In this document: positions 28,741-35,901 of the stretch, in pieces | How positions within the stretch are numbered: position 1 is the first letter of the stretch | Layout of the letters: every line of letters begins with the position of its first letter | NCBI GenBank assembly: GCA_902489775.1 | Contig: CABUBH010000005.1 | Coordinates: forward strand, 6,415-70,414 | Reading direction: 5' to 3' | Length of the DNA stretch: 64,000 nt | From: an uncultured Collinsella sp. | Lineage (GTDB): Bacteria > Actinomycetota > Coriobacteriia > Coriobacteriales > Coriobacteriaceae | The notes under the pieces: generated by a model | Database searches by the model: none | What the model saw: the letters and a program-made list of their open reading frames with translations, nothing else | What the model was told of the DNA's origin: nothing | Program-made: the position numbers and the translations under genes

Positions 28741-28965
28741 CTAGGGCACAGGGTCATAACCGCCGACGTGCAGGGGATTGCAGCGAGCGATGCGCCTCAC
28801 GGCAAGCCAGCAGCCTCTCAAAACACCGTATTTCTCAATCGCCTGAACGGCGTATTGCGAACACGTTGGATAATAAATGCAGGCGTCAGGCAATAAGGGC
28901 GAAATAACCTGTTGATATATGCGAATAGGAGCGATGGCAACACGCCGCAAGACGTGATTGCTCAT
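28741..28965 (-). CDS. yidD: membrane protein insertion efficiency factor YidD
   Basis: YQQVISPLLP..CIYYPTCSQYAVQAIEKYG. ATGA overlap with the rnpA stop. Confidence 0.9.
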   Translation of the reverse strand: MSNHVLRRVAIAPIRIYQQVISPLLPDACIYYPTCSQYAVQAIEKYGVLRGCWLAVRRIARCNPLHVGGYDPVP

Positions 28966-29300
28966 CGCTCCTCCCCGGCAACGCCGGCGCGTTTCATAAG
29001 CGAACGCAACGCCTTGTCCATCTCCTGCGGCGAGGAAACCCTCGTCTTGGGAGTTGCGAACAAGATGATGTCATAACCCGCAACGGGAAATCCGCAGCTG
29101 CGGGCGGCCTCGCGCATCACACGCTTAGAACGGTTGCGCACGACCGCACAACCGAGCCGTTTAGCACCAACGAAGGCGACCCTTCCGGAGTCGCCTTCGC
29201 CAACCGATTCACATATGGTCATTCGAATCAGAGGATGATTGAAACGACGCCCCTGACTGAACACATGCTCGAAATCTTGCCGAGACTTAATAGTCTTCAT
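28962..29300 (-). CDS. rnpA: ribonuclease P protein component
   Basis: 112-aa basic protein in the conserved position after rpmH. GAKRLGCAVVRNRSKRVMRE. Confidence 0.9.
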   Translation of the reverse strand: MKTIKSRQDFEHVFSQGRRFNHPLIRMTICESVGEGDSGRVAFVGAKRLGCAVVRNRSKRVMREAARSCGFPVAGYDIILFATPKTRVSSPQEMDKALRSLMKRAGVAGEER

Positions 29301-29320
29301 GCGAGATGTGTGTATCGCTG

Positions 29321-29455
29321 CTAGACAGTGAGACGCTTGCGGCCCTTGGCGCGACGACGGGCGAGCACGGCACGACCACCCTTAGTGGCCATACGGGCAC
29401 GGAAGCCATGGGTCTTGGCACGCTTACGCTTATTAGGCTGATACGTACGCTTCAT
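29321..29455 (-). CDS. rpmH: 50S ribosomal protein L34
   Basis: [44 protein letters not shown] (44 aa). Confidence 0.95.
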
Positions 29456-29527
29456 CTTAAGTTCCTCCTGCTGCATTTCGAGTGTCCGCGGGGACGCGGA
29501 CGCAGATATAGACACGTGAGCTTGAAG

Positions 29528-29557
29528 ATTGTAGGGAAATCAATGTTCAAATGTCAA
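29528..29557 (-). promoter_or_regulatory. putative sigma-70-type promoter of the rpmH operon
   Basis: On the minus strand: TTGACA (29557-29552), an 18-nt spacer, then TACAAT (29533-29528). Confidence 0.5.
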
Positions 29558-29632
29558 GAAATCAAAGGTAAAAGGTTGCGCAGTTCACACGGTTCCCCCA
29601 TAAGCCGAGCTCGATTTAGCGGTACATGGCAA

Positions 29633-29790
29633 TTTTTCACGATATTTCATCGAGTTTTCAACAGGTCATGTTGGCAATGTTGAGAACTTTTCGTCCGTTT
29701 TCCAAAGTTTTCAACAGGTTTTGAAAAGTTGTCGAAAGATGAGAAACATTGCACGGTGAGCTACTATTTGTTCGAAACCTTTTGAAAGAT
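29633..29790. promoter_or_regulatory. origin-flank repeat array (DnaA-box-like 9-mers, ~10-11-nt phased units)
   Basis: GTTTTCAACAGGT at 29654-29666 and 29707-29719. Tandem GTTTTCCAAA GTTTTCAACAG GTTTTGAAAA GTTGTCGAAAG at 29697-29739. Also TGTTGAGAA, TTTTTCACG and GTTCGAAAC. Confidence 0.6.
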
Positions 29791-29800
29791 TGCGAGCGGC

Positions 29801-31153
29801 ATGTCTGACGACTTTTACACCATGGTCGATTCCGGAGACCCGGCACCCGACAACGAGCACATCACCGGCGTGCGCGAAGAGCGTGAGGAAGGCGAGCAGA
29901 CGACCACGCAGGCGCCAAAAGCCATGTACGCCGCGCGCATCGCCGTCTATGATGACATGCTGTCGACACCGCGTGTGATCGTCATTGATCCGCAAGATGT
30001 CCGCACGTATTTGGAAGAGACGACCAACACCGTCTACCAGTGCATGAAAGAACAAGGTGGCCATATCTCGCTCATGGTCATCCGCGAGATTGTCGAAAAC
30101 TTTATCCACGCGCACTTTGCCGAGCCCATCATCTCGATTCTGGACGGCGGAGACACCATCCGCTTTGCTGATCAAGGACCCGGCATCGACGACAAGGAGC
30201 GCGCTTTCGACTTTGGCGTTACCAGCGCAAACAGCAAGATGAAGCGCTATATCCGTGGAACCGGAGCAGGGTTTCCCATGGTGCAGGAGTATTTGGAAAA
30301 CGCCGGCGGGGCCGTGTCCATCGAGGACAACATGGGCAACGGCACCGTGGTTACGGTAAGCCTGGACCCTAAACGCGTGCAGGAAATAGAGCGTGCCGGC
30401 GGACGCGGTGCTGCCGTGCGGCCCGAGACGGAGCAGCCCACATATCCCCTGCCGGGAGCTTTTGCGCAGCAGCCCATGGCAACGCAGCAGATGCAGCCCC
30501 CCGTGGGACAGATGCAGCAGCCCGGAATGCTTCCTACACAAGAGCCCCAGGCGGCATCGATGTCGATGCCGCCAAACGCGCCAGGGGCCATGCCGCTGGC
30601 GGATCAGGATGCAGCAGCAATGCAGCAGGCGACGGGGGCACCGGGTGGCCAGCAAATGGGATATCAGCCGTACCAACAGGGATATCCATATCAGCAGATG
30701 CCGCCACTGGGGTATGGCCAGCAGTATCCGCAACAGTACCCGCAGGGATACCAGCAGCCGTACCAGCAGATGCCCCAGCAACAGTACAACCCCTGGGCAC
30801 AGCAGGCACCGGCGCAGCCTTACCAACAGTGGCCGCAAAGTTTTCAACAGCAGATGCCACCCATGCAGAGTTCTCAACAACCAGCAGCTCAAATGATGTA
30901 TCCTAATGCGGCAAATCAGTATGCACAGCCACAGCCGGACGTGTTCGTAAGCGATCGCGGCAACGCCGCGCTGGGCTATCTGGCGCAAAATCAGGCGTGC
31001 GGTGCAACCGATCTGGCGAGGACGTTTGGAAACTCGGCCCCCACTTGGTCACGCACGCTCAATGACTTGGCGCAGGCTGGCTTGGTCATCAAGCATGGCC
31101 AGAAATACCATCTGACCGAACTCGGCGCCGCTCGCGTGCGAGCTCAGAGCTAA
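29801..31153 (+). CDS. uncharacterised GHKL-type ATPase domain / Q-P-Y-rich low-complexity region / C-terminal winged-helix protein
   Basis: N box REIVENFIHAH, G1 DQGPG, G2 GTGAG. Residues ~205-380 are Gln/Pro/Tyr-rich. The C-terminal ATDLARTFGNSAPTWSRTLNDLAQAGLVIKHGQKYHLTELG is wHTH-like. The stop lies 15 nt before the dnaA start. The start codon is uncertain (weak RBS). Confidence 0.75.
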   Translation: MSDDFYTMVDSGDPAPDNEHITGVREEREEGEQTTTQAPKAMYAARIAVYDDMLSTPRVIVIDPQDVRTYLEETTNTVYQCMKEQGGHISLMVIREIVENFIHAHFAEPIISILDGGDTIRFADQGPGIDDKERAFDFGVTSANSKMKRYIRGTGAGFPMVQEYLENAGGAVSIEDNMGNGTVVTVSLDPKRVQEIERAGGRGAAVRPETEQPTYPLPGAFAQQPMATQQMQPPVGQMQQPGMLPTQEPQAASMSMPPNAPGAMPLADQDAAAMQQATGAPGGQQMGYQPYQQGYPYQQMPPLGYGQQYPQQYPQGYQQPYQQMPQQQYNPWAQQAPAQPYQQWPQSFQQQMPPMQSSQQPAAQMMYPNAANQYAQPQPDVFVSDRGNAALGYLAQNQACGATDLARTFGNSAPTWSRTLNDLAQAGLVIKHGQKYHLTELGAARVRAQS

Positions 31154-31168
31154 AGAACGGGAGAGACA

Positions 31169-32893
31169 GTGGACGAGGAAGCAAGCATCATCCTGGGGGA
31201 TGCCATCGCCTTTTGCCAGCGCGACGGCCAAGATGCACGCCTCATCAACATGCTGGGGCAATCGCGCGCCATAAGCCTGACCGAAGATACGCTCACGATC
31301 GAGGCGCCCTCGCGCTTTGCCATCGCGCAGCTCAAAAAGCATCAGCCGACTATTGAGGCCTATCTGGAAGAAATCGCCTTTGCACCGATTGCGCTCGACA
31401 TCGTGGCACCGCAAGGCGCCGCGACGGAATCCGCTGCCGCGACGGCGCCCGCCACGGCTCCCGCTGCTTCCCCGGCGGTGCCGGCCTCCACAGGCGACGC
31501 GCCGACAATCGAGCACCAGCACGGTGATGTTTCCCGTGAAACCATGGCACCATTGCCGACCGCGGCGGCGACGTCAACGAACGCACCCGTCACGCACATG
31601 CCCATCGCTCACGACGCAGCGGCGGGCGCTGATTCGGGCATTGCAATCAAGAACACGCTCTCGGCCGATGATTTTCGTCGCATGATGAACCAGATGAAGG
31701 GTGGAGCGCCGACTAAATCCACGCAAGCTGCGACCCCCGCTTCACCCATGCCAGCACCAACCGTGCCGGCCGAGCAGAATACGGATGGAGCCCCACTCGC
31801 CGCGAACTCAAAATTTACCTTTGAGAACTTTGTCTACGGCCCCGAGAACAGCCATGCCTATCGCTCGGCACTCAAGTTTGCCGCCCTCGCGGACGAGCGC
31901 GGCACGTGCACATCACTGTTCATCTACGGCAAATCGGGCCTGGGCAAGACCCACCTGTTGCTCGCTATCAAAAACGAGCTCGCCGAGAAGTCGCCCGAGA
32001 TCAAGGTCAAGTATGCCAACTCCCAGGCATATCTGGACGACCTGATGACCGAGTTCGACCGCCAAAAGAAGAGCAACGCCCCCATCATGCAGGCGTACCA
32101 CGGCGTGGACGTGCTCATCATCGATGACATCCAAAACATCATCGGCAAGCGCGCGAGCGTGGACTACTTTTTCCAGCTCATGGACGAGTTCATCCGCAAC
32201 AACAAGAAGGTCGTCATCGCGGCAGACCGCGCCCCCAAGGACCTGAGCATGGACGAGCGTCTGACCAGCCGCTTCAACGCCGGCATGCTCTGCCTGGTCG
32301 CAGAGCCCAGCTACGAGATGAAATACAAGATCTTGCAGCGCTATTACGAGAACACCATCGTCGCCGCTCCCGAGGCAGGCGACGACTCACTGCTGGCGGC
32401 CTACGGGGGCGACGGCGGGCACCTGACCGACGAGCACTTTAAACACATGGCCGAGGTCTCGGGCACCAACATCCGCGAACTCGAGAGCTTTTGCGAGCGC
32501 TGCGCCGGCGAGGCGGGCGACCGCGAGCGCGAGGGCGGGGAACTCACCTTTGACGATATCGACGCCATCGCCAACCAGTACTTCGACACATCGGCCAAAA
32601 AGATCAACGTCCAGACGGTTCAGTCCGTCATCGAAGAGCAGTACGGCGTGACGCACGAGGAGCTCATCGGCCCGCGTCGCAACGCCAATATCGCCAAAGC
32701 ACGCCATATCGCTATCTACCTGGCCATCGAGATGTGCGAGATGACGACCACGGCGGTGGGCGCCGAATTTGGCAACCGCAACCACTCGACCGTCAGCACG
32801 AGCTACAAAAAGGTCCAGAAGATGATCCAGGAAGACCGCACCGTCACCGAAGACCTCAAATCGCTGCGCGATAAAATTACACTGCGTTCGTAG
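31169..32893 (+). CDS. dnaA: chromosomal replication initiator protein DnaA
   Basis: FTFENFVYGPENSHAY, Walker A GKSGLGKTHLL, and domain IV NHSTVSTSYKKV. GTG start after GGGAGAG. Confidence 0.97.
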   Translation: MDEEASIILGDAIAFCQRDGQDARLINMLGQSRAISLTEDTLTIEAPSRFAIAQLKKHQPTIEAYLEEIAFAPIALDIVAPQGAATESAAATAPATAPAASPAVPASTGDAPTIEHQHGDVSRETMAPLPTAAATSTNAPVTHMPIAHDAAAGADSGIAIKNTLSADDFRRMMNQMKGGAPTKSTQAATPASPMPAPTVPAEQNTDGAPLAANSKFTFENFVYGPENSHAYRSALKFAALADERGTCTSLFIYGKSGLGKTHLLLAIKNELAEKSPEIKVKYANSQAYLDDLMTEFDRQKKSNAPIMQAYHGVDVLIIDDIQNIIGKRASVDYFFQLMDEFIRNNKKVVIAADRAPKDLSMDERLTSRFNAGMLCLVAEPSYEMKYKILQRYYENTIVAAPEAGDDSLLAAYGGDGGHLTDEHFKHMAEVSGTNIRELESFCERCAGEAGDREREGGELTFDDIDAIANQYFDTSAKKINVQTVQSVIEEQYGVTHEELIGPRRNANIAKARHIAIYLAIEMCEMTTTAVGAEFGNRNHSTVSTSYKKVQKMIQEDRTVTEDLKSLRDKITLRS

Positions 32894-32901
32894 GGAAATA
32901 G

Positions 32902-33000
32902 AGACACCTGTTGAAAACTTGTCGAAACCATGGGCATAAGGTGTCTAAAACCCAACCCGCGGTGGTGAAAAGTTTTGCGCAGGTTTTGAACGTGGAAAAC
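32902..33000. promoter_or_regulatory. oriC DnaA-box-like cluster in the dnaA-dnaN spacer
   Basis: Reverse copy of GTTTTCAACAGGT at 32906-32918, TTGTCGAAA at 32919-32927, TGGTGAAAA, phased GTTTTGCGCAG GTTTTGAACGT, and CGTGGAAAA. Confidence 0.6.
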
Positions 33001-33080
33001 CACCCCCGTTGCACACAGGTTGCTGTCGATTCTCTTTCTGGGTCTGACCTGCGTCTTTGGGAGTAATCAACAGTTTCGTC

Positions 33081-33131
33081 AGTACTATTACTATTATTAA
33101 GATATTTATATCTATAGAAAGGTATTAAAAG
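33081..33131. promoter_or_regulatory. AT-rich putative DNA-unwinding element with a DnaA-trio-like trinucleotide run
   Basis: AGTACTATTACTATTATTAAGATATTTATATCTATAGAAAGGTATTAAAAG in an otherwise GC-rich context. The minus strand reads TAA TAA TAG TAA TAG TAC (33099-33082). Confidence 0.55.
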
Positions 33132-34235
33132 ATGAAGTTCACCGTCAGCCAGAGCTCGCTTACACAAGCCATCGGCGTCGTTATGAAGGGTGTCGCTTCG
33201 GCATCCACCCTCCCCATCCTGTCGGGCGTGCTCGTTAAGGCCCAAGACGGCATCTTGGAATTTCAGACCTCTAACTACACCATCTCGATCCGTCATCGCA
33301 TCGCGGCGCATGTCGAAGAAGAGGGCGAGATGGTTATCCCCTGTAAGATGCTCTCCAATATCACCAAGACCCTCCCCGATGCCCCGGTCACCTTTGAGCT
33401 GTCCGAGCGCCAGGTGCTGATTGGTTGCGAGAAGAGCTCTTTCCGCCTGAACACGCTCGATGCCAATGACTTCCCCGAGTTTCCGGCCTATGCCATCGAG
33501 AGTGCCGTGGAGCTGCCGACCGATGTCTTGTCCGAAATGGTCGGCCGCGTGTGGCGCGTCACCTCGACCGACAAGGCTCGCCCCATCCTGGGCGGCGTGC
33601 ACATGAAGGTCGAAAACAACACCGTACGCCTGGTGGCGACCGATTCCTTCCGCTTGGCCGTGTGCGATACGCAGGTCGAGACCTCGACCCTCGAGGGCTC
33701 CTTTGAGCTCAACGTTCCGGCCGACGCCTTTAACGACGCGCTAAACATCATGGCTAGCCAGGCGACCATCATGATCGGGGCTACCGACACCCAGGTCGTC
33801 TTCGAGGCCGGCAACACCACCTACGTGTCGCGCCGCATCGAGGGCGTGTACCCCAACTACAAGCAGCTCATCCCCGATTCGTGCGTGACGAGCGTCAAGA
33901 TCGACGTCGCCGCCTTTAACGCCGCCCTCAAGCGCGTGGCCGTTATCGCGAGCGCCAACCCCGCCGTCAAGTTCGAGATCGATGTCGAGAACGGGCAGAT
34001 GGGCCTGTCCTCCATTTCCAATGACCAGGACCTTGCGCAGGAGACGATCGATGTCGAGGCCGAGGGCGAGTCAGGTACCATCGCCTTCAACTACCACTAC
34101 ATCTTCGGCTGCCTCAATGCCCTGTCCAAGGAGAAGGAGATCACGCTGGAGCTCAAGAGCTACTCGCAGGCGGGCATCTTCAAGTCCTACGACAAGATCA
34201 ACTACCTGTACCTGGTCATGCCGGTCCGCATCTAG
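33132..34235 (+). CDS. dnaN: DNA polymerase III beta sliding clamp
   Basis: 367 aa, MKFTVSQSSLTQAIGVVMKGV... In the conserved position after dnaA. Confidence 0.97.
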   Translation: MKFTVSQSSLTQAIGVVMKGVASASTLPILSGVLVKAQDGILEFQTSNYTISIRHRIAAHVEEEGEMVIPCKMLSNITKTLPDAPVTFELSERQVLIGCEKSSFRLNTLDANDFPEFPAYAIESAVELPTDVLSEMVGRVWRVTSTDKARPILGGVHMKVENNTVRLVATDSFRLAVCDTQVETSTLEGSFELNVPADAFNDALNIMASQATIMIGATDTQVVFEAGNTTYVSRRIEGVYPNYKQLIPDSCVTSVKIDVAAFNAALKRVAVIASANPAVKFEIDVENGQMGLSSISNDQDLAQETIDVEAEGESGTIAFNYHYIFGCLNALSKEKEITLELKSYSQAGIFKSYDKINYLYLVMPVRI

Positions 34236-34244
34236 CGCTGCGCC

Positions 34245-35351
34245 ATGACCATGTTCGCCCGCGATCTTTCCGTCGCGCACTACCGCAGCTTCGATAGCTA
34301 TCGCCTTGCCCTGGACGAGGGCGTGACGATACTTGCGGGACCCAACGCGGCGGGAAAGACCAATCTCATAGAGGCGCTGCAGCTGCTGACGAGCGGTTCC
34401 TCGTTTAGGCATCCGACCGCAGCCGAGCTCGTCCATGACGGCGTGGGCTCGTGCAAGGTCGAGCTGAGGCTCGAGGGCGACGGACGCGTGCTTGATATGG
34501 GATTGAGCGCGGAGGACGGTAAGCGCTCGTTTAGCCGCAACGGTAAGAGATGCTCTGCCGCCGGTGTGCGCGGGGTTCTGCCGAGCGTGCTGTTTTGCCC
34601 CGACCATCTGGACATGGTTAAGCGAGGCGCCAGTGTGCGCCGCGCCGCCCTCGATGACTTTGGCATGCAGCTGAGTGCGCGTTATGCCGATCTTGCGAGC
34701 ACCTATGGGCGCTGCGTGACCCAGCGTAACGCCCTGCTCAAGGAGACCTGGTGCTGTCGCGAGATGCTCGGCGCGTGGAACGATTCGATTGCCCGCGCGG
34801 GTTCGGCCCTGCTCGTGCACCGGTTGGCCCTACTCGACCGGCTGGCGGGCCATGTGCACACTGCCTACGGGCAAGTGGCGTCCGGCGAGGCTGCCAACGT
34901 GGCCTATGCGTCCACGCTGGGGGATTTGCCCCAGGTCGAGGATCGCGAAGAGCTGAAGGGCTGGGCGTACGAGCGCATGCTGGCTGCCCTTGATGAGCAC
35001 GCCGACGAGGAAATCCGCCGCGGCGTGACGTTGGTGGGACCGCATCGCGACGAGATTGAGTTTACCGTGGCGGGTCGCTCCGCCCGTTCATTTGCCAGCC
35101 AAGGACAGCAGCGTACATTGGTGCTGTCCTGGAAGGTGGCCGAGGTTGCCGTGGCTCGCGATGTCCTGGGCACCGCCCCACTGCTGCTTTTGGACGACGT
35201 GATGAGCGAGCTCGACGGCGAGCGTCGCGGCGCTTTCCTGCGGCTGATCGGCGATGATATCCAGACGGTCATAACCACGACCAACCTGGGGTACTTTACC
35301 GATGACCTGCTTGATCGAGCCAAGGTGGTGAGCATGGGTGAGACGTGCTAA
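34245..35351 (+). CDS. recF: DNA replication/repair protein RecF
   Basis: Walker A GPNAAGKTNLIEAL, signature FASQGQQRTL, and Walker B LLLLDDVMSELD. Confidence 0.95.
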   Translation: MTMFARDLSVAHYRSFDSYRLALDEGVTILAGPNAAGKTNLIEALQLLTSGSSFRHPTAAELVHDGVGSCKVELRLEGDGRVLDMGLSAEDGKRSFSRNGKRCSAAGVRGVLPSVLFCPDHLDMVKRGASVRRAALDDFGMQLSARYADLASTYGRCVTQRNALLKETWCCREMLGAWNDSIARAGSALLVHRLALLDRLAGHVHTAYGQVASGEAANVAYASTLGDLPQVEDREELKGWAYERMLAALDEHADEEIRRGVTLVGPHRDEIEFTVAGRSARSFASQGQQRTLVLSWKVAEVAVARDVLGTAPLLLLDDVMSELDGERRGAFLRLIGDDIQTVITTTNLGYFTDDLLDRAKVVSMGETC

Positions 35352-35901
35352 TTACGAGCGCGAGAGCGAAACGGTCGCCTTCAGCGGGTTTTTGAACGCA
35401 GAGCGCCAGCGCATCCTGGCGTCGGCGACCCCCGAGCGCCGTGCGCAGATGGAGGCCGCCGAGGAGTCGCGCACGGTCTATCGCGCATGGAACGCGGTGT
35501 GCTCGGGCACGCGCGAGGGACGGCATGTGACGGGACTGCGCTACCTGCCCGAGTCCAATGAGCTGCTGGTGTATCTCGACTCGCCCTCGTGGACGCAGGA
35601 AATGACGCTGTTGCGCGAGATCATCCGCGCGCGCATGGAGCGCGCCGGTGCGCATGTGGACGGCCTGGTGTTCAAAACCACCGCGCCCGGTCACACGCCG
35701 CCCGCCGCCAAGGAGCGCCTGCGCCCGTCGACGACCGAGCGACCGCCGGCCCCGCACGCCGACCTAAGTGAGGCCGAGCGTACCGAGATCGAGCGCCAAG
35801 TGGCGCCCATCGAAGACCAAAAACTGCGCGAGGCCCTCGAGAATGCCATGAGAGCCAGTGCCGAGTGGGCCAAGGGCGTGCAAAGCAAAAAAGAGCCTTA
35901 A
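35338..35901 (+). CDS. DUF721 / DciA-like protein
   Basis: It occupies the recF-gyrB slot, as actinobacterial DciA (Rv0004) does. The sequence ..VYRAWNAVCSGTREGRHVTGLRYLPESNELLVYLDSPSWTQEMTLL.. fits the DUF721 pattern. GTG start overlaps recF by 14 nt. Confidence 0.6.
   Translation: MRRANYERESETVAFSGFLNAERQRILASATPERRAQMEAAEESRTVYRAWNAVCSGTREGRHVTGLRYLPESNELLVYLDSPSWTQEMTLLREIIRARMERAGAHVDGLVFKTTAPGHTPPAAKERLRPSTTERPPAPHADLSEAERTEIERQVAPIEDQKLREALENAMRASAEWAKGVQSKKEP

Follow-up and report, generated by a model that had tools for sequence, protein, structure and literature searches.

The window analysed here, a 64,000-nucleotide stretch of contig CABUBH010000005.1, is the chromosomal origin region of a Collinsella resembling C. 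aerofaciens, and it carries between rpmH and dnaA an additional gene, referred to here as gene X. Gene X is an open reading frame (ORF) at 29801-31153 on the plus strand, starting with ATG and encoding 450 amino acids (aa). It is followed on the same strand by dnaA, dnaN, recF, a DciA-like gene and gyrB, and the minus strand on its other side carries, in window order, jag, yidC, yidD, rnpA and rpmH. The X stop codon (TAA, 31151-31153) is separated from the dnaA GTG start at 31169 by the 15-nt spacer AGAACGGGAGAGACA (31154-31168), which contains GGGAG, a Shine-Dalgarno-like element for dnaA, and has no room for a promoter or a terminator. The dnaA gene (31169-32893, plus strand) encodes a protein of 574 aa identified by both Pfam and NCBIfam (Bac_DnaA, E=1e-41; Bac_DnaA_C, E=9e-21), with a divergent domain IV signature. 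rpmH, encoding ribosomal protein L34 (29321-29515, minus strand; Pfam Ribosomal_L34, E=3e-24), is divergent from X. The rpmH-X spacer (29516-29800) holds an array of DnaA-box-like 9-mers and is the presumed site of the X-dnaA promoter.

Consensus scans found no plus-strand promoter in the rpmH-X spacer and no plus-strand terminator-like site anywhere across 29200-33300. An earlier note on this DNA had described a 450-aa ORF on the dnaA strand ending 15 nt before the dnaA GTG, had seen no hairpin between the two genes, and had placed the box-like array upstream of X rather than directly upstream of dnaA. The coordinates were verified, and the scan and the positions of the boxes bear out the other two points.

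Linkage of X to dnaA and its conservation

An exhaustive HMMER search of 1.84 billion representative proteins grouped the X family into 253 clusters (50% identity) at E<1e-30, and the 150-residue core of X was still about 50% identical in the weakest matches listed. A scan of 185,579 species genomes, of which the best 80 loci were considered, returned proteins with 97-99% amino-acid identity to X; nearly all are labelled Collinsella, with a few records of metagenome-assembled genomes (MAGs) labelled 'uncultured bacterium' or 'Oscillospiraceae bacterium'. The breadth of the family beyond Collinsella was drawn from the representative proteins, exact-sequence look-ups and a metagenome scan; the sampling covered high-scoring members, and MAG taxonomy is given as labelled by submitters. 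Named members come from Collinsella, Parvibacter caecicola and Eggerthellaceae, a 'Coriobacteriia bacterium' MAG, Candidatus Aquicultor secundus, which is placed in the Actinomycetota class Aquicultoria, and many Armatimonadota MAGs, so that the lineages with X span at least two phyla.

Three loci were inspected for a Collinsella relative, and each has dnaA as its next gene downstream of X. Of seven loci retrieved for distant representatives, six show the same order; the remaining one, L088, stops about 0.6 kb past the end of X and gives no DnaA match. We then considered 80 metagenome loci with a GC content of 27-70% and counted as informative the 72 that extend more than 210 nt beyond X. All 72 carry dnaA downstream of X on the same strand. 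Most gaps between the two ORFs fall between -11 and +31 nt; in L100, L111 and L125 the ORFs overlap by 4 nt, and a minority of gaps measure 60-230 nt. Two loci from independent projects have rearranged surroundings, with recF and dnaN on the minus strand upstream of X (L169, 557-7743; L170, 19-4167) and rpmH, rnpA and yidC on the plus strand downstream of dnaA, and X and dnaA are still adjacent in both. Because the adjacency survives this rearrangement, the linkage is to dnaA itself and not to rpmH or to the neighbourhood at large. The L34 proteins of these two loci are 98-100% identical to the Collinsella protein, which makes both loci probably Coriobacteriia.

The architecture of X and its operon-like linkage to dnaA thus occur in lineages from at least two phyla. 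The same-strand order in every informative locus, the small gaps and the three overlaps strengthen the co-transcription that the earlier note had proposed; in several lineages, X is apparently also translationally coupled to dnaA. The note had further suggested a synteny survey of Coriobacteriia and Actinomycetota. The arrangement turned out to be conserved well past that scope, into Armatimonadota, with no unlinked homologue in the 72 informative loci. Position and conservation together predict that X opens a conserved module of two genes, X and dnaA.

Three X-dnaA gaps of 86-136 nt (L084, 3788-3872; L089, 1949-2083; L088, 1361-1465) each contain a perfect or near-perfect -10 hexamer, TATAAT or TAGAAT. 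The L084 gap also holds a GGTACG...CGTACC hairpin and the L088 gap a TTTTCAACA box. These features suggest that some lineages have a further promoter or leader close to dnaA.

To place the conservation of X on a common scale, Collinsella proteins were compared with those of ten distant loci using the same genome pairs. Across classes and phyla the X core retains 46-52% identity, as against 29-36% for DnaA domains III-IV, 28-40% for DnaN, 30-45% for RecF and 28-46% for YidC. Only L34, at 63-84%, exceeds it among the proteins compared. Identities of this order show that purifying selection on the ATPase core must have been very strong, and they would fit an enzyme-like catalytic constraint better than a simple binding module. 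Searches of 72,556 plasmids and of 50,697 phage genomes found no homologue, and by this distribution X does not appear to be a mobile-element gene.

Source annotations of family members read 'ATP-binding protein', 'histidine kinase', 'helix-turn-helix domain-containing protein', 'hypothetical' or 'predicted transcriptional regulator', and several members are annotated by JGI (Joint Genome Institute) as 'anti-sigma regulatory factor (Ser/Thr protein kinase)'. No curated NCBIfam model covers X, no solved structure describes the protein, and no paper that describes the family, or a gene lying between rpmH and dnaA in these taxa, was found in the literature. The domains of X are known; its architecture and its cross-phylum coupling to dnaA are new.

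A contig whose X is 98% identical to the Collinsella gene (L041) is labelled 'Oscillospiraceae bacterium', and a member of the L109 cluster is labelled 'Bacteroidales bacterium'; both labels probably reflect MAG mis-binning. Members of the L109 and L148 clusters were found on contigs of 2.0-2.25 Mb, from an abundant organism.

Domain architecture of the X protein

Pfam HATPase_c matches X at aa 93-190 with 43.3 bits against a gathering threshold of 26.4, and it matches all 70 family members. The motifs are an N box, REIVENFIHAH (aa 95-105), a G1 box, DQGPG (aa 124-128), and a G2 box, GTGAG (aa 153-157). The ATP site is formed by E96, E99, N100 and H103 of the N box, D124-G128 of G1, K132 and K148 of the lid, and G153-G157 of G2. 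In two alignments of diverse members, E99, N100, H103, D124, G126, P127, G128, K132, G153, G155 and G157 are invariant and E96 nearly so. The family-specific extension in front of this domain, an 'ARIAVYDD..PRV' beta-hairpin followed by a helix (aa 67-84), contains further residues, R46, D51, P57 and R58, that are invariant or nearly so.

X was modelled by AlphaFold2 with a 26-sequence alignment, and a shorter homologue, P0269, with 70 sequences. The X model has two confident domains, aa 40-200 and aa 380-450, with disorder between them (aa 201-373). The first (29918-30400) comprises the extension and the histidine-kinase-type GHKL ATP-binding domain; its pLDDT (predicted local distance difference test) values are mostly 85-97, falling to 69-82 at aa 101-110 and in the ATP-lid region (aa 121-160). 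The second lies in the segment encoded by 30926-31153 (aa 376-450 plus stop), where aa 385-449 adopt a three-helix-plus-wing fold at a pLDDT of 95-98, a winged helix-turn-helix (wHTH) of MarR/IclR/DtxR/TrmB type with a C-terminal helix. The model of P0269 (281 aa, short linker), with a mean pLDDT of 86, repeats this layout, running from a beta-hairpin and a long helix through the N-box helix and a Bergerat alpha/beta sandwich to about 35 disordered residues, and then to a beta-winged group of three helices followed by a terminal helix.

Structure and profile comparisons assign the same folds. The top Foldseek matches are the CA domains of histidine kinases (the EnvZ chimera 4kp4, HK853, CpxA and ZraS), with BCKDK-type kinases ranking lower. 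The family profile gives KinB as its best match in the PDB and also matches the N-box region of MutL (residues 16-77, E=1.1e-3). For the C-terminus, the PDB profile matches are the winged helices of FabT, MarR, AdcR, MntR, IclR and Csa3. wHTH Pfam models stay below threshold in X itself (HVO_A0261_N, 31.7 against 35; MarR_2, IclR and ArsR weaker). At the family level, HVO_A0261_N matches 65 of 70 members, TrmB 53 of 70 and HTH_IclR 39 of 70, the last above its cut-off in P0269; the FtsK_gamma wHTH model matches 11 of 70. No HisKA or DHp match was obtained in X by Pfam at E<=1, the beta-hairpin and single helix of the models stand before the N box, and no histidine is conserved outside that box, H103 being the only invariant one.

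The earlier note had read a Bergerat/GHKL fold from the three boxes, whose positions are exactly as it gave them, and Pfam, Foldseek and the PDB profile search agree on that fold. Its view that X has neither a DHp nor a sensor domain is upheld by the missing HisKA match, the beta-hairpin and single helix that make up the N-terminal extension, and the confinement of the invariant histidine to the N box. The C-terminal winged helix that it proposed has gained family-wide Pfam and PDB profile support, as a MarR/IclR/DtxR-type domain. It knew of no characterised system with this architecture, and likewise none was found among curated families or in the literature.

Between the two domains lies a disordered linker (aa 201-375, 30401-30925; pLDDT <50) rich in Q, P, A, M, G and Y, Q making up 27% and P 18% of its residues. 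Measured between alignment anchors, the linker is 18-200 aa long across the family (median 30; 18-48 aa in most members), and visual inspection puts it at up to about 400 aa in some. Within Collinsella it is 74% identical as against 98% for the core, and it behaves as a tether rather than a domain. At the other end, aa 1-39 (29801-29917) comprise an aromatic motif, MSDDFYTMVDSGDP, and then a disordered segment, with pLDDT <50 for aa 1-35. The motif (29801-29842, aa 1-14) reads M[SA][DE]DFYPFVD in Coriobacteriales; in other clades FDYSFV stands directly before the core, and Armatimonadota and Aquicultor proteins have an amphipathic DFLRQVIEE-type helix in its place. The aromatic motif looks like a docking peptide in sequence. 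A beta-clamp-binding site was considered and set aside, as FYPFVD and FDYSFV do not fit the consensus QL[SD]LF in a by-eye comparison.

Among known proteins, X shares most with the CA domains of HK853, EnvZ, CpxA and KinB: the fold is common to all, as is the set of N, G1, F-like, G2 and G3 boxes, and the G1-G2 spacing of about 29 aa is one we take to be histidine-kinase-like. By motifs and fold, the ATP-binding part would work most like a histidine-kinase catalytic domain. Unlike the kinases, however, X lacks a DHp/HisKA domain, a phospho-acceptor histidine, a sensor or transmembrane region and an adjacent response regulator, and has instead a beta-hairpin and helix in front and a wHTH behind. 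No response regulator adjoins X here, where the neighbours are rpmH and dnaA, or in more than 80 related loci; the rest of the genome was not searched. A two-component kinase was rejected given the missing DHp domain, acceptor histidine and adjacent response regulator. The N box, E-x-x-E-N-x-x-H-A, is closer to the GHL pattern than to that of histidine kinases. The GHL ATPases MutL, MORC, GyrB/ParE and Hsp90 have in common with X the Bergerat fold and an E-x-x-x-N motif with a catalytic-type glutamate. X differs from them in lacking a transducer (ribosomal S5 domain 2-like), in its histidine-kinase-like G2 box and lid, and in ending in a wHTH where they have a dimerisation or endonuclease domain. 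Pfam DNA_mis_repair and HATPase_c_3 do not match X, and a GHL ATPase was rejected because the transducer is absent.

SpoIIAB, RsbW, CapK and BCKDK/PDK resemble X in having a stand-alone GHKL domain and no DHp domain; these kinases spend ATP on a partner protein. An HTH is present in CapK and a wHTH in its substrate CapS, which ties a GHKL kinase to transcription control, and the pair depends on STAS domains (PMC13373217). In contrast to SpoIIAB, RsbW and CapK, X has no STAS domain or partner, no nearby sigma factor and no HATPase_c_2 match, and its operon is that of dnaA, not one for stress or immunity. Neither a STAS nor a sigma gene was seen in the neighbourhoods, which were checked with Pfam in the individually inspected loci only, the 80 metagenome loci having been screened only for dnaA, dnaN, recF, rpmH, rnpA and yidC. 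A SpoIIAB-type anti-sigma factor was rejected on the lack of a HATPase_c_2 match and of a STAS or sigma partner. The only solved structure that aligns over both a GHKL-like domain and a wHTH is DIP2311 (3lmm; 283 columns, query-normalised TM score 0.46), an uncharacterised protein with a different domain arrangement (root-mean-square deviation 15.9 Å). Its domains are named AlbA_2 and HATPase_c_4, and neither model matches X. A defence-system component was also rejected, as PADLOC gives only wHTH-level matches to the C-termini of Csa3/CasR (E 1e-6 to 6e-3).

DnaA boxes and a possible role in initiation

The rpmH-X spacer contains TTTTCAACA at 29655 and 29708 on the plus strand, one-mismatch copies at 29678 and 29719 on the minus strand, and TTTTCCAAA at 29698; the two plus-strand copies belong to the 13-mer GTTTTCAACAGGT, at 29654 and 29707. 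A second cluster lies in the dnaA-dnaN spacer (32894-33131), with TTTTCAACA at 32909, TTTTCACCA at 32963 and TTTTCCACG at 32991, all on the minus strand. Exact copies of GTTTTCAACAG occur in both spacers and at one site within X. The window has 21 TTTTCAACA-like 9-mers, nine of which fall within 29.6-33.0 kb, and no canonical TTWTNCACA box is present in the whole 64 kb. An AT-rich stretch at about 33080-33131, beside the second cluster and just before dnaN, is a candidate DNA-unwinding element.

Other lineages with X have canonical boxes, TTATCCACA or TTTCCACA, in the same spacer, and TATCCACA, present in 44 of 50 rpmH-X spacers, is the only motif that recurs there. The Collinsella DnaA domain IV (about 32590-32770) reads ARH...GNRNHSTVST where lineages with canonical boxes have PRQ...GGRDHTTV.H; the substituted positions are presumably those of the base-contacting D433, T435 and H439 of E. 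coli DnaA. The DnaA of another locus (L136), reading SNREHAT, likewise goes with TTTTCAACA boxes. Since the box variant tracks the domain IV substitutions and the boxes elsewhere are canonical, the upstream repeats are most likely lineage-variant DnaA boxes, and the pairing suggests that initiator and box have co-evolved. For the same reasons, GTTTTCAACAG(GT) was rejected as an X-specific operator. A DnaA-box cluster before dnaA is usually an autoregulated dnaA promoter or the left half of a bipartite origin in Terrabacteria.

The GTTTTCAACAG copy inside X lies in the fast-evolving linker coding sequence (30840-30850, plus strand). An exact TTTTCAACA 9-mer is found at the same offset in 82 of 82 Collinsella loci, including some where protein identity is down to 85%; a functional intragenic DnaA box or plain shared ancestry could account for it. 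A second near-copy, TTCTCAACA, lies close by at 30871.

Taken with the linkage and the domain architecture, these observations lead us to propose that X works as an ATP-dependent factor tethered to DNA, with DnaA, the DnaA-oriC complex or the dnaA promoter as its target, a reading to which we assign a probability of roughly one half. X and DnaA would be made together from one transcript controlled by DnaA boxes; the winged helix would anchor X on DNA in or near the origin or the dnaA-promoter region; the ATP-binding domain would serve as an ATP-dependent switch or a kinase on one of the three targets; and initiation, or the supply of initiator, would thereby be tied to an ATP or phosphorylation signal. 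The use of ATP, the binding of DNA and the choice of DnaA or oriC as target are what we infer. In its most ambitious form, which we hold only tentatively and consider doubtful, the proposal would make X an obligate second component of the initiator in Coriobacteriia, Aquicultoria, Armatimonadota and related lineages, an origin-tethered GHKL ATP-dependent enzyme co-translated with DnaA that phosphorylates or remodels DnaA or remodels the DnaA-oriC complex. X would then represent a class of initiation control without counterpart among Hda/RIDA (regulatory inactivation of DnaA), YabA, Soj, SirA and SeqA.

Known regulators of DnaA or oriC would be functional analogues of X under the proposed role: Soj/ParA, YabA, SirA and DnaD; Hda, DiaA and SeqA; HobA and HP1021; MtrA, CtrA and Spo0A. 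They are lineage-restricted, with Soj/ParA, YabA, SirA and DnaD in Bacillota and Hda, DiaA and SeqA in Proteobacteria, and some, such as Soj and Hda, are ATPases. X has no sequence or domain relation to any of them by Pfam and NCBIfam, which return only HATPase_c or histidine-kinase-type and wHTH models. We know of no DnaA regulator that is a GHKL protein or that is encoded immediately upstream of dnaA, overlapping it, across phyla.

Several points weigh against the proposed role. CA domains of the histidine-kinase type normally need a DHp partner. The net charge of the wHTH is near zero (mean -0.33, positive in 42% of members), which leaves DNA binding plausible but not assured and would also allow protein contacts instead. 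No second conserved motif that might be an X operator was found in the 50 rpmH-X spacers, and the 60-230 nt X-dnaA gaps with TATAAT-like hexamers mean that dnaA may have its own promoter there. X is also more conserved than DnaA, and a similar divergence might be expected if DnaA were its sole partner. Weaker X paralogues may, in addition, be located elsewhere in the genomes.

Three other explanations were weighed against this proposal. X could be a plain transcription factor whose winged helix binds operators at the X-dnaA promoter, and perhaps others, while the GHKL domain senses ATP or another nucleotide, so that the dnaA operon is tuned to the energy state and the DnaA protein and the mechanics of oriC are untouched. 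The MarR/IclR/DtxR/TrmB type of the C-terminal domain, the position of X directly downstream of the promoter and box region, the annotation of some members as 'predicted transcriptional regulator' and the recurrence of a GHKL-like plus wHTH plan in DIP2311, which aligns over both domains, all agree with this. The 50 spacers, however, share no operator besides DnaA boxes. X keeps a full catalytic-type motif set, including an E-x-x-x-N glutamate that a pure ligand sensor would not need; an identity of 46-52% across phyla is unusually high for a ligand-sensing regulator; and the near-neutral wHTH counts against this explanation as well. We regard it as unlikely, while allowing it some weight. A SpoIIAB/RsbW/CapK-like serine kinase or partner-switching factor with a substrate other than DnaA, such as a sigma-factor antagonist, would reduce the adjacency to co-expression at an origin-proximal locus linked to growth rate. 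The JGI label points that way, as do the weak score that the SpoIIAB model TIGR01925 gives to a single Armatimonadota member (25.4 bits, the cut-off being 135) and the BCKDK-type GHKL Ser-kinases among the Foldseek and hidden Markov model matches, and the CapK-CapS pair is a case of a wHTH repressor under the control of a GHKL kinase (PMC13373217). HATPase_c_2 nevertheless fails to match at E<=1, the flanks are always rpmH/rnpA/yidC and dnaA/dnaN/recF, with no STAS or sigma gene in the loci checked by Pfam, and a linkage of 72 in 72 loci that includes overlaps and survives rearrangement is far tighter than convenient co-expression needs. We consider it the least probable of the explanations.

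X might, finally, organise or compact origin-proximal DNA in the manner of MutL, MORC or GyrB: ATP-driven dimerisation of the N-terminal domains would bridge two DNA-bound winged helices, the linker might promote condensation, and X would serve origin architecture or segregation instead of controlling DnaA. REIVENFIHA fits the GHL E-x-x-x-N pattern, the family profile matches the motif I-II region of MutL at E ~1e-3, and the plan of an N-terminal ATPase, a disordered linker and a C-terminal domain resembles that of MutL. Long Q/P/G/Y-rich linkers in gut lineages, FtsK_gamma matches in 11 of 70 members and the presence of parA and parB a few genes away from X would also suit such a role. The X domain ends at about aa 200, however, without the S5-fold transducer through which GHL proteins couple hydrolysis to dimerisation; its G2 box and lid are histidine-kinase-like, and the structures that match it best, CA domains of histidine kinases, do not use ATP to dimerise. 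With 18-48 aa linkers in most members, condensate behaviour is not a trait of the family, and the linkage is specifically to dnaA, not to parAB. We consider this role improbable.

A good understanding of initiation control is limited to a few model Proteobacteria and Bacillota; little is known of it for Coriobacteriia, whose members include the abundant human gut genera Collinsella and Eggerthella, or for Armatimonadota. X is a concrete and testable candidate for the missing initiation regulator or co-factor of these groups. Should it act on DnaA, the mechanisms that control the bacterial initiator would gain a GHKL-type ATPase or kinase, and X could give a lineage-specific means of influencing how gut Coriobacteriia grow. 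As a mere transcription factor it would still represent a widespread unnamed family that deserves a name and a curated model. For replication specialists, the surprise would be a gene more conserved than dnaA, overlapping it in some loci and present in at least two phyla.

Neighbouring genes and minor features

On the minus strand, rnpA (28962-29300) precedes rpmH in window order, and rpmH has a sigma-70-like promoter (29557-29528, TTGACA-18-TACAAT) that matches the consensus at 11 of 12 positions. On the other side, the dnaA-dnaN spacer, with its box copies and AT-rich stretch, leads to dnaN (33132-34235, plus strand), which encodes the beta clamp as identified by Pfam DNA_pol3_beta domains, with recF next. 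A gene of 187 aa downstream of recF (35338-35901, plus strand), whose orthologue in L001 has a weak DciA (PF05258) match, probably encodes the DciA-type helicase-operating factor of the lineage. A search for Rfam families returned nothing relevant in the region, its sole match being a sub-threshold, spurious internal ribosome entry site.

Antisense to X runs an L/R/C/H-rich ORF of 425 aa (29711-30988, minus strand). It was considered as an alternative gene and set aside, since the conserved domains and the homologues belong to the plus frame; we treat it as spurious because it is of the type expected opposite a GC-rich, Q/P-rich coding region.

The Collinsella DnaA is unusually long at 574 aa, with an A/P/T-rich low-complexity stretch (aa ~80-210, 31400-31800) between domain I and the AAA+ domain, and no Pfam DnaA_N match is listed for it. 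This stretch may have arisen in parallel with the expansion of the X linker in the same gut lineages.

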